Made by a program: the position numbers and the translations under genes. The notes beneath the pieces are model-generated. The model did no database searches, was not told the DNA's origin, and saw nothing but the letters and a program-made list of their open reading frames with translations. A stretch of 16,886 nt of DNA from NCBI GenBank assembly GCA_031441465.1, contig JANOEP010000062.1, positions 1 to 16,886 on the forward strand. Reading direction: 5' to 3'. The DNA is from a bacterium (GTDB taxonomy: Bacteria; Krumholzibacteriota; Krumholzibacteriia; LZORAL124-64-63). The stretch's first letter is position 1; each line of letters starts with the position of its first letter. Of this stretch, positions 1 to 16,356 are shown piece by piece.

Positions 1-141
1 ACCCTCTTCCATCGCGATCGGCGTGATCAGCTCGATCGTCATCTTGATGTTGTCGCCCGGCATCACCATCTCCACACCCTCGGGCAGGTGCGCCGAACCC
101 GTCACGTCCGTCGTCCGGAAGTAGAACTGCGGCCGGTAGCC
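1..141. repeat. 141-bp exact terminal direct repeat (tuf domain III sequence), copy 1
   Basis: accctcttcc...ggccggtagcc at 1-141 matches 16746-16886 base for base by direct reading. Confidence 0.97.
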
Positions 142-1125
142 CGTGAAGAACGGCGTGTGACGGCCGCCCTCCTCCTTCGACAGGATGTACACCTCGCACT
201 CGAAGTCCGTGTGGGGCTTCACCGATCCCGGCTTGCACACCACCATCCCGCGCTCGATGTCTTCCTTCTTCATCCCGCGCAGCAGCAGGCCCACGTTGTC
301 GCCGGCGATGCCCTGGTCCAGGATCTTGCGGAACATCTCCACGCCCGTGCAGACCGTGCTCTGGTTGTCCCGCACGCCCACCAGCTCCACCTTGTCGCCC
401 GTGTTCACCACGCCGCGCTCGATGCGGCCCGTCGCCACCGTCCCACGCCCGGAGATCGAGAACACGTCCTCGACCGGCATCAGGAACGGCTTGTCCAGCT
501 CGCGCACCGGCGTCGGCACGTAGCTCTCCAGGGCGTCGATCAGGTCGAAGATGCACTTCGCCTCGGGGCTGTCCGCGTCCCCGCTCTCCAGCGCCTTCAG
601 CGCCGATCCCTTCACGATCGGCACGTCGTCGCCCGGGAAATCGTACTTCGTCAGCAGCTCCCGGATCTCCAGCTCCACCAGCTCCAGCAGCTCGGGGTCG
701 TCCACCATGTCGCACTTGTTCATGAACACCACCATGTACGGCACGCCCACCTGGCGGGCCAACAGGATGTGCTCCCGCGTCTGGGGCATCGGGCCGTCGG
801 CCGCCGACACCACCAGGATCGCCCCGTCCATCTGGGCCGCGCCCGTGATCATGTTCTTCACGTAGTCGGCGTGGCCCGGGCAGTCCACGTGCGCGTAGTG
901 GCGCTTCAGACTCTGGTACTCCACGTGAGCCGTCGCGATCGTGATCCCGCGCTCGCGCTCCTCGGGTGCCTTGTCGATCTGGTCGAACGGAACGTAGTCC
1001 GCCAGGCCCCTCTTCGACAGGATCTCCGTGATCGCCGCCGTCAGCGTCGTCTTGCCGTGGTCCACGTGACCGATCGTCCCCACGTTCACGTGTTCCTTCG
1101 TCCGTTCGAACTTTGCACGAGCCAT
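1..1125 (-). CDS. tuf: Elongation factor Tu, str-operon copy (3'-truncated by window edge; 375 codons visible)
   Basis: Not in the ORF track because it runs off the edge. Manual translation from ATG at 1125 gives [33 protein letters not shown]...RGITI...[26 protein letters not shown]...NKCD...[33 protein letters not shown] lies within 1131-1140, directly downstream of fusA. Confidence 0.99.
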
Positions 1126-1168: not shown

Positions 1169-3280
1169 TCACGGGCGGGTCCAGATGCCCATGTAACGCT
1201 GCTTGATTTCCGTCGCGATCTTCTCGGGCGCCCGCTCGTAGCGGGCGAACTGCATCGTGTACGTCGCTCTTCCCTGCGTCAGCGACCGGACCTGCGTGGC
1301 GTAGCCGAACATTTCGCTCAGCGGCACCTCGGCCTTGATCACCTGGACGTCCCCGCGCGGCTCCAGCTGCTGGATCTGCCCGCGCTTCGAGTTGAGGTGT
1401 CCGGTCACGTCCCCGAGGTACGCCGCCGGAACCACCACCTCGACGTCCATCACCGGCTCGAGCAGGGCCGGCTGCGCGTCCTGAACCGCCCTTCTCAGGG
1501 CTTCGGCGCCCGCCGCCCGGAAGGCCGGTTCGCTGGAGGCGTCCTCCTCGAAGGTCCCGCCCACCAGCCGGATCCGCAGGTCCACCAGAGGGTGGCCGGC
1601 GAGGATCCCGCTCCCGCAGGCCTGGAGGCTCGCCTCCTGCACGGCCCGCTGGTACTCCGCCGGCAACCTGTCCACCGGCACGCCGCTCGAGAAGCTCAGG
1701 CCCTCCCCGTAGGTCGCCGGCTCGACTGCCAGCTTGACGTGCGCGAACTGAACCTTGGTCCCGGCCTGCCGCTCGAGGCGGAAGTCCGCCTGCGCCGGGG
1801 CGGTGATCGTCTCGCGGTAGGCGACCTGGGGCTTGCCGACGTTGGCCCTGACCCCGAATTCCCGCTGCATCCGATCCGTGATGATCTCCAGATGCAGTTC
1901 GCCCATCCCGCTGATGATCATCTGGCCCGTCTCGGGATCCACCTTCACCCTGAAGGTGGGGTCCTCGTCCGCCAGCCCCGCCAGCGCCTCGCTCATCTTG
2001 TCCTGGTCGGCCTTCGTCTTGGGCTCGATCGCCACGAAGATCACCGGTTCCGGGAAACTCATCTCCTCGAGCAGGATCGGCCTCTCGAGGGCGCAGAGCG
2101 TGTCGCCCGTGCGGATCTGCTTGAAGCCGGACACCGCCACGATGTCCCCGGTCCCGACTTCCTCCACCTCTTCACGCTTGTTGGCGTGCATCCGGTAGAT
2201 CTTGCCGAGCCGCTCCTTCTTGCCCGTGTTGGCGTTCAGGACGACCCCGCCCGCCTTGAGGACCCCGCTGTAGACCCGGACGAAGGCCAGCCGGGACACG
2301 AAGGGATCCGTCACGATCTTGAAGGCGATGGCGCTGAACGGTTCGCCGTCGTCCACCGCCCGGGACTCGGTCTCGGTCCCGACGCCGCCTTCGCCGTCCT
2401 GCACCCGCCACCCCCGCACCGGCGGCAGGTCGAGCGGCGAAGGCAGGAAATCCACCACGGCGTCGAGCAGTTTCTGGACGCCGTTGTTCTTGAACGCCGA
2501 ACCGCAGAGCACCGGCACCAGGTGGGCGCCCAGGGTGGCGCGCCGCAGTCCGGCCAGGAGTTCCTCGTCCGCGGGTTCCCGCTCCTCGAGGTAGCACTCC
2601 ATGATCTGCTCGTCGACCTCGGCCACCGTCTCGACCAGCTTCGCGCGGGCCGTCCGCGCCGCCGGGAGCATCGCCGCCGGGATCTCCGCGTCCTCGTAAC
2701 TGGCGCCCAGGTCCGCCTGGTCCGGGTACCGGATCCGCATCGTCAGCAGATCGATCACGCCCCGGAACCCTTCACCGCTGCCGTCCGGCAGCTGGATCGG
2801 CGCCGGCCGCGCGCCGAGCCGCTCCACCATCATCGTCACGACCCGGTCGAAGTCCGCTCCCGGCCGGTCCATCTTGTTGACGAACGCGAGGCGCGGGACC
2901 CGATACTTGTCGGCCTGCCGCCAGACCGTCTCCGACTGGGGCTCCACCCCGCCGACCGCGCAGAAGACCGCCACGGCCCCGTCCAGGACCCGCAGGCTGC
3001 GTTCCACCTCCACGGTGAAATCGACGTGCCCCGGGGTGTCGATGATGTTGACGCAGTGGTCGCGCCAGGCGCAGGTGGTCGCGGCCGCCGTGATGGTGAT
3101 GCCGCGTTCCTTCTCCTGCTCCATGAAGTCCATCTGGGTCGCCCCGTCGTGGACCTCGCCGGGGATGTGCACGCGCCCGGTGTAGTAGAGGATCCGCTCG
3201 GTCGTCGTCGTCTTGCCCGCATCGATGTGGGCCATGATGCCGATGTTGCGAATCTTCTGCAGAGCCACTCGGCGCGCCAC
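1169..3280 (-). CDS. fusA: Elongation factor G family GTPase (703 aa) with divergent domain IV, probably EF-G2/recycling type
   Basis: [66 protein letters not shown] and PLSEMFGY motifs; located between rpsG and tuf. Start moved from the track's 3322 to GTG at 3280 ([14 protein letters not shown]), which has the SD-like GGGGTGA at 3283-3289. Confidence 0.96.
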
Positions 3281-3454
3281 GTTCACCCCATGATGCCCGG
3301 GCCGCAAGCATTCGACTCGCACAGTCGCCCCAGAGGGGCCTGTCCGTCGTCGACTGCCCAGGTCCCGCCTCCTGCGGCGACCGTACGGGCTATTCGTTCC
3401 TGTCGCTCCGGCATTCCTAGCGAAGCGCTGTGTGGACCTGAACGAGAGGGACCA

Positions 3455-3925
3455 TTACCATCGGCAGTGGGCGAACGCCTTGTTCGCATCAGCCATACGG
3501 TGTGTGTCTTCGCGCTTCTTGATAGACGGTCCTTCGTTCTTGCTGGCCAAGACCAACTCGGCAGCCAGCCGCTCGGCGAACGTGTGTTCGGGCCGGGTGC
3601 GGGCGAAGCTGATGATCCAGTGCATGGCGAGCATCTGGCGCCGGTCGGGTCGGACCTCGACGGGCACCTGGTACGTCGCGCCGCCGATGCGGCGGGACTT
3701 CACTTCCAGGCTGGGCTTGACGTTGCTCAGGGCGGCGCGGAACACGTCGACGCCCTCCTGCCCCGTCTTCTCCTTGATCATGTCCATCGCCTCGTAGACC
3801 ATCCGCTCGGCGACGCTGCGCTTGCCGTCGGACATCACGTAGTTGATGAACTTCGTCACGACGGCGTCCCCGTACCGGTGGTCCGGGGTGATGTGGCGTC
3901 GTTCGGGTCGTCTGCGCCTGGCCAT
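3455..3925 (-). CDS. rpsG: 30S ribosomal protein S7 (156 aa)
   Basis: [10 protein letters not shown]...[16 protein letters not shown]...[18 protein letters not shown]...[21 protein letters not shown] at 3925 with SD AAGGAG at 3937-3942 (the track start at 3964 is too far upstream). Confidence 0.98.
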
Positions 3926-3980
3926 GTTGCTGACTACTCCTTGGCGGGGCCCGCGGCCCCGCATCTGCTGACCATTCGGG

Positions 3981-4361
3981 TCAGGACTTCACTTTGGGCC
4001 GTTTGGCGCCGTACTTCGAGCGACCCTGGCGGCGGGCCTCCACGCTGGAGGCGTCCTGGGTGCCGCGCACGATGTGGTAACGCACGCCGGGCAGGTCCTT
4101 GACGCGGCCCCCGCGCACCAGCACGATGCTGTGCTCCTGCAGGTTGTGGCCTTCGCCGCCGATGTAGGCGGTGATCTCGATGCCGTTGGTCAGGCGCACG
4201 CGGGCGATCTTGCGCAGGGCCGAGTTGGGCTTCTTCGGCGTCTGGGTGTAGACGCGGGTGCAGACGCCCTTGCGCTGGGGGCAACCCTGCAGCGCGGGGC
4301 TCTTGCTCTTGACGAGCACTTGCTGGCGGCCTTTGCGCACGAGCTGGTTCAGGGTCGGCAA
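3981..4361 (-). CDS. rpsL: 30S ribosomal protein S12 (126 aa, TTG start)
   Basis: [12 protein letters not shown]...[25 protein letters not shown]...GHNLQEHS...[13 protein letters not shown]...[10 protein letters not shown]. Confidence 0.99.
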
Positions 4362-15232: not shown

Positions 15233-16030
15233 TCAGACGTCCTTCACCTGAAGGAAGTCCAGCTCGACCGGGGTCTCCGATCCGAAGATCGAGATCATCA
15301 CCTTGAGTTTGCCCTTGTCGTGATTGATCTCGTTGACGACACCGACCCAATCGGTGAACGGGCCGTCGATCACCTGGACGCTGTCCCCCACCTGGTAGGG
15401 GATCTCCAGCAGCGTTCCCGTCTCTTCCGACTTCGTCATGCGGCCCAGGATGCGGTCGACCTCGTCGGAGTCGATCGGCTGCGGCCGCAGCTGCGTGCCG
15501 CCGATGAAGCGGGTCACGCCGGGGATGGAATTGATGAAGTGCTGCGATTCCTTGGTCATGATCATCTCGACCAGGACGTAGCTCGGGAAGAACTTGCGCT
15601 TGGAGGTCGAGCGCTTGCCGTTCTTCATCTCGGTGACGTCCTGCGTCGCGACGAGCACCTCGCCGAACAGGTCTTCGAACTCGTTGGCCTTGATCGCCGT
15701 CTCGATGTTGCGCTTGACCTTGTTCTCGTGGCCCGTGTTCGCGTGGATCACGTACCAGCGCATGCCGCGCCGGCGCTTCTCCTCTTCGGGCAGCCGGCCG
15801 GCGGCGGCGGGCGCTCCTGCGGGGGCCTCGGCGGCGGGCGCCTCGACAGGCGTCGCCGCGGGCGCGACGGCGGCCGGGGCCGCCGCAGGCGCAGCGTCCT
15901 CGTCGTCGAAGGCGAACAGGTCGGCGCCGTGCAACGGCGCGTCCACGACGGCGCTGTCGTCGGCGACTTGATCGCCGGCCAGGCCCGTGAACAGGGGCTC
16001 TTCGCGCAGGTCCTTGGCGTCGTCTGACAC
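15233..16030 (-). CDS. nusG: Transcription elongation factor NusG with N-terminal acidic Ala/Pro-rich extension (265 aa)
   Basis: NGN domain MRWYVIHANTGHENKVK...RKFFPSYVLVEM...PGVTRFIG and KOW motif VGDSVQVIDGPF...ISIFGSETPVELDFLQV. The track start (16288) overlaps secE. GTG at 16030 has SD GGAGG at 16038-16042; an alternative start is ATG 15763. Confidence 0.95.
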   Translation of the reverse strand: MSDDAKDLREEPLFTGLAGDQVADDSAVVDAPLHGADLFAFDDEDAAPAAAPAAVAPAATPVEAPAAEAPAGAPAAAGRLPEEEKRRRGMRWYVIHANTGHENKVKRNIETAIKANEFEDLFGEVLVATQDVTEMKNGKRSTSKRKFFPSYVLVEMIMTKESQHFINSIPGVTRFIGGTQLRPQPIDSDEVDRILGRMTKSEETGTLLEIPYQVGDSVQVIDGPFTDWVGVVNEINHDKGKLKVMISIFGSETPVELDFLQVKDV

Positions 16031-16075
16031 GATCGTTCCTCCGTCCGCGGCGAGCGGACTCGTCCTGCAGGGATG

Positions 16076-16118
16076 AAAGACAAAGAAACACCCGGGCCGG
16101 TAACACCTACCGGCGGGC
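16076..16118 (-). terminator. Intrinsic terminator/attenuator-like hairpin plus U-tract between secE and nusG
   Basis: Minus strand: GCCC-GCCGGTA-GGTGT-TACCGGC-CC-GGGT-G-TTTCTTTGTCTTT, a 7-bp core stem extendable across a 2-nt bulge, followed by 10 T in 13 nt. Confidence 0.55.
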
Positions 16119-16164
16119 TGTCCCGTCAGCCTCGCGATCCACCTGCGGCGCCGCACGGCGCCGG

Positions 16165-16356
16165 CTACGTCATCAGGATCAGCTGCCTCTGGATGAAGCT
16201 CAGCACCTGATCGACGATGAAGATGAAGACCGTCACCACCGCGACCGTGGCCAGCACGACCATGGTGGACTCGCGCAGTTCCCGCCACGTGGGCCAGGAA
16301 ACGCGCCTCATTTCCTGCCCGGTCTCCCGCACGTACAACGTCAGCCTGTTGAACAT
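16165..16356 (-). CDS. secE: Preprotein translocase subunit SecE (single-TM form, 63 aa)
   Basis: EMRRVSWPTWRE signature followed by one hydrophobic helix (VVLATVAVVTVFIFIVD); canonical position between tRNA-Trp and nusG. Confidence 0.97.
   Translation of the reverse strand: MFNRLTLYVRETGQEMRRVSWPTWRELRESTMVVLATVAVVTVFIFIVDQVLSFIQRQLILMT

Follow-up and report, generated by a model that had tools for sequence, protein, structure and literature searches.

A division of labor between a translocating and a ribosome-recycling elongation factor G (EF-G) is known from spirochaetes, planctomycetes, delta-proteobacteria (together, the spd phyla) and mitochondria (Margus et al., 2011, PMC3150367; Koripella et al., 2021, PMC8203779). 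The paralogs of the three bacterial groups have been described as spdEFG1 and spdEFG2, of which the former is defined by a three-residue KDG insertion in switch I, and the latter co-occurs with it in genomes devoid of a canonical EFG I (Margus et al., 2011, PMC3150367). The same study notes delta-proteobacterial EF-Gs that can be assigned to neither EFG I nor spdEFG2, and scattered further cases, including an spdEFG1 in Fibrobacter, have been reported (Atkinson, 2015, PMC4342817). Here we analyze fusA, the EF-G gene (product P0001) of the str operon in a 16,886-base window (the whole stretch of DNA considered; contig JANOEP010000062.1) from a metagenome-assembled genome (MAG) of the phylum Krumholzibacteriota. 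The protein is canonical in all parts except domain IV's tip, which is rewritten, and it coexists with a KDG-type EF-G that retains an intact tip. The literature searched, including that on spdEFG2, yielded no description of this case; no search combining the name of the phylum with EF-G was made.

A canonical EF-G with a rewritten domain IV tip

Across most of its length P0001 is a conventional EF-G. It scores 958.6 bits against the NCBIfam EF-G equivalog TIGR00484, far above the cut-off of 659.4 bits, and it would accordingly be auto-annotated as plain "elongation factor G," as a preliminary description of the same DNA had anticipated. The protein contains the five Pfam domains of the EF-G architecture (GTP_EFTU, EF-G_D2, EFG_III, EFG_IV, and EFG_C), and its translation from the minus strand, which includes GSAF, shows all G motifs to be intact. 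P0001 is 55–61% identical to EFG I proteins of many phyla, and a scan of named genome contigs returned conserved EFG I matches only, also from many phyla, at 51–62% identity, with no close relative among them; in a protein atlas, the matches were generic EF-G clusters. Among proteins of solved structure, it matches Thermus thermophilus EF-G with 838 bits, mitochondrial EFG1 (mtEFG1) with 566 bits, and mitochondrial EF-G2 (EF-G2mt) with 497 bits.

Domain IV departs from this conservation. Our reference alignment is built from EFG I proteins of many phyla, 74 named sequences in all (without six shorter or cut rows, L070, L075, L087, L092, L100, and L103), and conservation reaches at least 95% in 206 of its columns. 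Outside domain IV, P0001 keeps 176 of the 182 conserved residues (G domain, 99/100; domain II, 32/35; domain III, 25/26; domain V, 20/21), but inside it only 15 of 24. The nine changes, in P0001 numbering, are G522T, G524V, G550V, G551D, G564A, D588G, H592E, V594D, and D595A; position 592, which is Glu in P0001, is the equivalent of H583 of Escherichia coli EF-G. Both canonical tip motifs, GG.G.YG of loop I and H.VDS of loop II, are absent, and the tip loops keep the canonical EF-G lengths, with the residues alone altered. The same selectivity is apparent from mean identities to EFG I, which amount to 63.5% for the G domain, 52.0% for domain II, 72.5% for domain III, 37.5% for domain IV, and 56.8% for domain V, so that the ratio of domain IV identity to that of the other domains is 0.61 for P0001 compared to 0.93 among the EFG I sequences themselves. 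The tip changes are not chance variation.

These results bear out the core of the preliminary description, which had claimed that all three loops at the tip are rewritten, with Glu in place of the H583 equivalent, that the G domain and domains III and V are canonical, and that divergence is concentrated in domain IV. The stretches that it quoted are present in the minus-strand translation by codon count, RQAGTKVQF at 1745–1771 and the loop II stretch at 1520–1561.

Other EF-G genes and the recycling factor of the genome

The assembly (3.49 Mb in 74 contigs, 96.8% complete) encodes three full-length EF-G-like proteins. The second of these, P0003 (G000:C4:4280-6328), is 43% identical to P0001 and is the additional EF-G with an intact tip that the preliminary description had predicted to exist elsewhere in the genome, with the SxH.VDS motif kept. 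Its switch I region reads EVRGKDGVGATMD, that is, it carries the three-residue KDG insertion; its tip loops are canonical (KQTGGSGQYG, VIGGTVPTEY, and DGNSHAVDSS), and 23 of the 24 conserved domain IV columns are preserved. The solved structure nearest to P0003 is mitochondrial EF-G1 (785 bits, versus 640 for T. thermophilus EF-G). With the KDG insertion, a closer match to mtEFG1 than to canonical EF-G, and an intact tip, P0003 has the features of the spdEFG1/mtEFG1 type. The insertion is found in 22 of 22 KDG copies of the host phylum and in all 29 of those from Myxococcota, and is absent from all other groups of EF-Gs. The C-terminal tail of the KDG copies is about six residues longer than that of EFG I (medians of 24 and 18 residues, respectively).

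The third protein, P0004 (G000:C12:3806-5857; L003:1498-3579), is 36% identical to P0001, has NF009381 as its best match, and shows the P-loop APHGVGKTS, TRMNK in place of NKxD, and intact domain IV loops. We take it to be EFG II-like. Copies of this type occur in all sampled families of the phylum, both with and without the KDG copy, and therefore do not explain the released constraint on P0001. The gene for ribosome recycling factor (RRF) is present once in the genome (G000:C24:46096-46575).

Tip loss and the KDG copy co-occur across families

We sampled nine families of the host phylum, denoted f1–f9, with the genome of the window belonging to f1. A first sample covered 31 genomes of the class, of which 23 proved to have a copy of the KDG type with at least 66% identity to P0003, namely, all 19 genomes of f1 (including that of the window), two of f5, and two of f6 (in G009 split over two contigs). 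No such copy was found in the 8 genomes of f2, f3, f4, and f7. A wider sample of 201 genomes of the phylum yielded the same partition, with the KDG copy present in 79/86 genomes of f1, 10/12 of f5, and 9/9 of f6, or 98 of 107 for the three families together, and not found in f2 (0/7), f3 (0/42), f4 (0/23), f7 (0/8), f8 (0/12), or f9 (0/1). The seven listed f1 genomes without a match are 62–90% complete.

To this distribution corresponds the state of the str-operon EF-G, which we compared in 70 sequences, 30 from the first sample and 40 picked to represent further genera among 112 matching genomes. Q[ST]GG.G.[YF]G, the full motif of loop I, and H.[VI]DS, that of loop II, each occur in 32 of 32 sequences from families that lack the KDG copy. 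In the KDG-bearing families the full loop I motif is found in none of 38, and the loop II His survives in 10 of these (0/26 in f1, 5/7 in f5, and 5/5 in f6). The families differ in how far the change has gone. The f6 proteins keep the GG of loop I and the His, with YG replaced by FA; in f5, the first loop I glycine is Ala in four of seven sequences (L258–L260 and L262) and is kept in the other three. Within f1, new residues have become fixed or nearly so, with Ala at position 527 in 26/26 sequences (also in the 12/12 of f5 and f6) and Lys at 523 in 22/26, and the old His position is occupied by D, E, R, or another residue. The loop II positions that follow it are conserved in these 26 sequences, being S in 25, S or T in 24, and E in 24.

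Two individual genomes deserve mention. No str EF-G copy was found in G003, a genome of the same genus as that of the window that is 83% complete. Three str-type EF-G matches on three contigs were detected in G245 (f8), for which 5% contamination is reported, and these probably represent mixed strains rather than paralogs.

Selection on the str copy

Six genomes of the genus, compared in 15 non-independent pairs (dS 0.07–0.16), were used to estimate the ratio of non-synonymous to synonymous substitution rates (dN/dS) by the Nei-Gojobori method. For the str copy it is 0.29 in the G domain, 0.32 in domain II, 0.06 in domain III, 0.20 in domain IV, and 0.12 in domain V; the whole gene gives 0.21, and the 42 codons of the tip give 0.28. 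The corresponding values for the KDG copy are 0.11 for the whole gene and 0.078 for domain IV, so that the str copy evolves approximately twice as fast as its partner (0.21 vs. 0.11). The str frame is open in all 70 genomes examined. The str copy is under purifying selection, and the rewritten domain IV is constrained in its new form. For the spd and mitochondrial systems, the EFG2 member reportedly also evolves faster than its partner, and little conservation of recycling-linked sites is said to be found in it.

The host lineage and the origin of the two EF-Gs

The affiliation of the host with Krumholzibacteriota is consistent with the roughly 70% G+C reported for MAGs of this phylum, one of which, with 71.1% G+C, was first placed through low-identity matches of its EF-G gene (PMC10936416), and with the two observations that follow. 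In trees, canonical EF-Gs from the sister families fall among phyla of the Fibrobacteres-Chlorobi-Bacteroidetes (FCB) type, not with Myxococcota or Desulfuromonadales, and the genome contains 53 matches to type IX secretion system sorting domains, compared to none in 14 control genomes. On the evidence gathered, the host would be an FCB-type lineage outside the classical spd phyla, which agrees with the placement beyond the known spd groups that the preliminary description had considered.

The spd phyla are represented in our trees by Myxococcota only, through 61 genomes reached via a named Myxococcales MAG. A KDG copy was detected in 32 of the 61. The 40 partner genes fetched from Myxococcota comprise 16 degenerate EF-Gs encoded outside the str operon, 20 str-operon copies, and four others. 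The 16 degenerate proteins (L178–L193, from genomes G037–G092) have very degenerate tips with insertions of 3–4 residues in two of the domain IV tip loops, and lack the last ~14 residues, with 3–5 residues after the conserved aromatic residue as against 18 in EFG I; we take them as spdEFG2-like by these sequence features. Three str-operon EF-Gs from KDG-bearing Myxococcota genomes, L194 (G084), L195 (G092), and L205 (G072), have degenerate tips, the His being lost in L194 and L195, and erosion of the str copy therefore recurs in a second phylum. Among the four others, L215 is a canonical copy without str genes in its flanks, and L196, L197, and L216 (G044, G094, and G079) form a long-branched non-str trio with H.KDST in loop II and two insertions near residue 88, which fits none of the groups used here.

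The position of the str EF-Gs depends on the tree. A FastTree phylogeny of 210 rows (duplicates L140–L144, L146, and L147 and partial sequences L145 and L177 dropped) places those of the host phylum inside EFG I, among Gemmatimonadota, Eisenbacteria, Marinimicrobia, Ignavibacteria, and Zixibacteria, and apart from the Myxococcota spdEFG2-like clade. In an IQ-TREE analysis under LG+G4 (91 rows; the long rows L185, L188, L189, and L195 left out), the sequences of f1, f5, and f6 join that clade with a support of 97 in the Shimodaira-Hasegawa-like approximate likelihood ratio test (SH-aLRT), and f5 stays with it, at 97, after removal of domain IV. The C20 mixture model with posterior mean site frequencies (49 rows) likewise unites f1, f5, and f6 with the clade, at 98, when domain IV is included, and yields a polytomy, in which the grouping dissolves, when it is removed. 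A single clade of all 12 str EF-Gs of the phylum is not rejected by the approximately unbiased test (log-likelihood difference 15.1, p = 0.241). Furthermore, the five indels that mark the Myxococcota spdEFG2-like clade are all absent from P0001, which keeps the C-terminal helix, with 22 residues after the conserved Tyr versus 3–5 in that clade. The operon position, unchanged in 30 of 30 relatives, favors descent in place. Thus far, P0001 may be read either as a member of the spdEFG2 clade or as a resident EFG I altered by decay in situ.

The KDG copies of the host phylum form a clade with the Myxococcota KDG copies (support 100) and are nested within them, and two KDG-type EF-Gs of Myxococcota, L148 (G085) and L149 (G090), fall inside the clade of the host phylum, next to f6, which suggests that the gene was transferred between Myxococcota and the host phylum. 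We tentatively propose, as one possible course of events, that a KDG translocase was acquired by transfer in the ancestor of f1, f5, and f6, and that the recycling-type EF-G then arose in place as the str EFG I lost its tip stepwise. The stages postulated in this scenario are preserved among the extant families, from f6 (GG and His kept) through f5 (His lost in 2/7) to f1 (His lost in 26/26). If correct, it would represent an independent repeat of the spd and mitochondrial split with the intermediates still alive. If, on the other hand, the tree signal is real and not a product of attraction, the FCB-type lineage could lie close to the origin of spdEFG2 in Myxococcota.

Layout of the locus

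All genes of the window lie on the minus strand: nusG, rplK, rplA, rplJ, rplL, rpoB, rpoC, rpsL, rpsG, fusA, and tuf. The coordinates of the features that are relevant here are given in Table 1. By homology, the true start of P0001 is likely the GTG at 3280.

Table 1. Features of the str-operon segment of the window and of P0001 (positions in the 16,886-base window; residues in P0001 numbering)
Feature	Position	Strand	Details
fusA, str-operon EF-G (P0001)	1169..3322	-	Frame from GTG at 3322 to stop at 1169-1171; TIGR00484, 958.6 bits; five Pfam domains
Domain IV of P0001, residues 498-617	1472..1831	-	PF03764; the selectively diverged part
Loop I of the domain IV tip, residues 518-528	1739..1771	-	Second conserved Gly to Thr, next Gly to Val, YG to FA
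Middle tip loop, residues 548-557	1652..1681	-	Canonical GG to VD
Loop II (H583 loop), residues 588-601	1520..1561	-	His to Glu, Val to Asp, Asp to Ala; following SSE and loop length unchanged
P-loop AHIDAGKT, residues 31-38	3209..3232	-	Intact
rpsG (ribosomal protein S7)	3455..3964	-	Directly upstream of fusA; PF00177, 211 bits
rpsL (ribosomal protein S12)	3981..4361	-	First gene of the str unit; PF00164, 140 bits
tuf (EF-Tu)	1..1125	-	Truncated at the contig end; downstream of fusA by 43 bases; strong GGAGG site

The str-operon setting of fusA is thus the standard rpsL-rpsG-fusA-tuf arrangement, and the S12 and S7 genes are found upstream of it in all 30 loci of relatives. EF-Tu is encoded downstream in 15 of these 30 only; many of the contigs stop there, as that of the window does inside tuf, probably because assembly is interrupted by a second, near-identical copy of tuf. 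At the other end of the window, the nusG frame (15233–16288) comprises 351 codons with the NusG domain at residues 176–281 only, so that the protein either has a long N-terminal extension or starts well downstream.

Functional implications

We consider it likely that P0001 is a recycling-specialized, translocation-poor EF-G and that P0003 carries out translocation; the present comparisons support this interpretation of P0001, which had been advanced in the preliminary description. P0001 would be a working ribosome-dependent GTPase that is no longer efficient in driving tRNA-mRNA translocation and is retained to split post-termination ribosomes together with RRF, and translocation would fall to P0003, a protein of the KDG type related to spdEFG1/mtEFG1 with an intact domain IV tip. 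The activities of both proteins are extrapolated from the effects of the same changes in E. coli EF-G, Borrelia EF-G2, and human EF-G2mt.

The two glycines of loop I are described as universally conserved and as allowing the tip to insert at the decoding center; in two factors confined to recycling one of them is replaced, the second by Asp in EF-G2mt and the first by Ala in Borrelia EF-G2 (Koripella et al., 2021, PMC8203779). With respect to E. coli EF-G, deletion of loop I or any single change in it is reported to leave polysome breakdown intact, loop II deletions and S588P to abolish or reduce it, and H583K, S588P, and E589A each to block translocation (Zhang et al., 2015, PMC4666400). Judging by the motif, the Ser-Ser-Glu of loop II in P0001 would align with E. 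coli residues 587–589. P0001 appears to keep those features that are needed in E. coli recycling, the length of loop II and the Ser-Ser-Glu, and the residues that it has lost appear to be those tied to translocation. As for the partner, the C-terminal extension of mitochondrial EF-G1 (EF-G1mt) is said to prevent co-binding with RRF (PMC8203779), and the longer C-terminal tail of the KDG copies offers a parallel to it, which is suggestive only.

Several observations weigh against this assignment. Loop II of E. coli EF-G has been reported to take part in the disruption of bridge B2a during recycling (PMC4666400), and three loop II residues are changed in P0001; therefore, recycling could be altered as well. 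The gene is still located between rpsG and tuf, where a highly expressed translocase would be encoded, and the EFG II-like third paralog, P0004, also has intact tip loops. Codon adaptation is 0.72 for P0001 and 0.82 for both P0003 and tuf, a small difference that mostly tracks G+C content at third codon positions and was obtained against a background set that includes wrong-frame open reading frames. Moreover, 17 of the 20 str-operon EF-Gs from KDG-bearing Myxococcota genomes have canonical loops, and hence the KDG copy permits tip loss but does not force it. Finally, the genomes are related, f1 and f6 grouping together in the trees with f5 near them, and because of this the co-distribution of the KDG copy with tip loss is close to a single evolutionary event, and the 70 sequences are not independent trials.

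One alternative is that P0001 is still the main, dual-function EF-G, with an unusual tip suited to the ribosome of this lineage, and that the KDG copy serves as a translocase in an accessory capacity or under specific conditions. The canonical operon position, the intact GTPase motifs and domains I–III and V, the purifying selection, the unchanged loop lengths, and the frequent occurrence of the KDG copy beside a canonical str EF-G in Myxococcota are all compatible with this possibility. Nevertheless, we regard it as unlikely: the lost residues occupy columns that are at least 95% conserved among the 74 EFG I sequences and are required for translocation in E. coli (PMC8203779; PMC4666400), and the full loop I motif has been lost only beside an intact-tip KDG copy (0/32 str EF-Gs of families without the KDG copy vs. 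38/38 of families with it). A tip that varies as widely as it does within f1, where the His position alone is D, E, R, or something else, also misfits a co-evolved contact with the decoding site.

It is likewise rather improbable that P0001 has moved to some other ribosome-associated role, such as rescue, quality control, or stress response, with recycling performed by the KDG or the EFG II-like copy. Stress roles have been speculated for some spdEFG2 proteins (Atkinson, 2015, PMC4342817). The partial rewriting of loop II, which is implicated in recycling, would be in line with such a shift, as would the reportedly low conservation of recycling-linked sites in the EFG2 member of the spd and mitochondrial systems. 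However, the tested proteins with comparable tip changes, Borrelia EF-G2 and EF-G2mt, are recycling factors, and the KDG-type copies have a tail some six residues longer than that of EFG I, for which the extension of EF-G1mt, said to block RRF co-binding (PMC8203779), offers a suggestive parallel; in addition, the S-S/T-E of loop II is conserved. That P0001 is a decaying, functionless gene surviving only through its essential operon is extremely improbable, since, although its dN/dS is double the value for the KDG copy, an open frame is present in 70/70 genomes, dN/dS is 0.06–0.32 in every domain, 176/182 conserved positions outside domain IV are kept, and the state persists across at least three families; a pseudogene was rejected on the dN/dS values and the open frames.

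The recycling specialization of P0001, if correct, has implications beyond the locus itself. What is new is a predicted translocase/recycling split of EF-G in a large branch of an FCB-type phylum, extending over three families and 98 of the 107 genomes sampled from them. In these organisms, the gene annotated as housekeeping fusA is probably not the translocase, which would affect the use of fusA as a marker or growth proxy, the prediction of fusidic acid targets, and the reading of metatranscriptomes. Furthermore, the tips of the sister families, which are canonical in some and half or fully changed in others, constitute a natural series that separates the tip residues needed for translocation only from those that are retained (the length of loop II and its S-S/T-E), in agreement with E. 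coli mutagenesis.

Comparison with known systems

Among the described systems, spdEFG2/mtEFG2 (Borrelia burgdorferi EF-G2 and human EF-G2mt) are among the closest to P0001. Like these, it occurs beside a partner with the KDG insertion, in a genome without a canonical EFG I, and it has lost a loop I glycine along with other tip residues linked to translocation; moreover, the maximum likelihood trees that include domain IV group it with the non-str degenerate EF-Gs of Myxococcota (SH-aLRT 97–98), a grouping that the mixture model no longer recovers after removal of domain IV. Unlike them, it is encoded in the str operon, outside which all 16 of the fetched Myxococcota spdEFG2-like genes are located; it is without the five signature indels of the Myxococcota clade and possesses the C-terminal helix that the latter lacks; and its match to T. 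thermophilus EF-G (838 bits) is far better than that to EF-G2mt (497 bits). With canonical EF-G (EFG I, TIGR00484), P0001 has in common the operon position, domain architecture, length, indel pattern, and G motifs, but it differs in the three rewritten tip loops, the loss of the H583 equivalent, and the presence of other EF-Gs in the genome.

A functional parallel is offered by the two EF-Gs of Pseudomonas aeruginosa. EF-G1A, the str-operon copy, is 75-fold less active in poly(U) synthesis, and a role together with RRF has been suggested for it (Palmer et al., 2013, PMC3832671). As predicted here for P0001, the str copy of that pair is a poor translocase, and the copy located elsewhere, EF-G1B, translocates. 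The two P. aeruginosa proteins, however, are 84% identical and both belong to EFG I (PMC3832671), whereas P0001 shares 43% identity with its partner P0003, a protein of the KDG/spdEFG1 type, and has lost the tip motifs.

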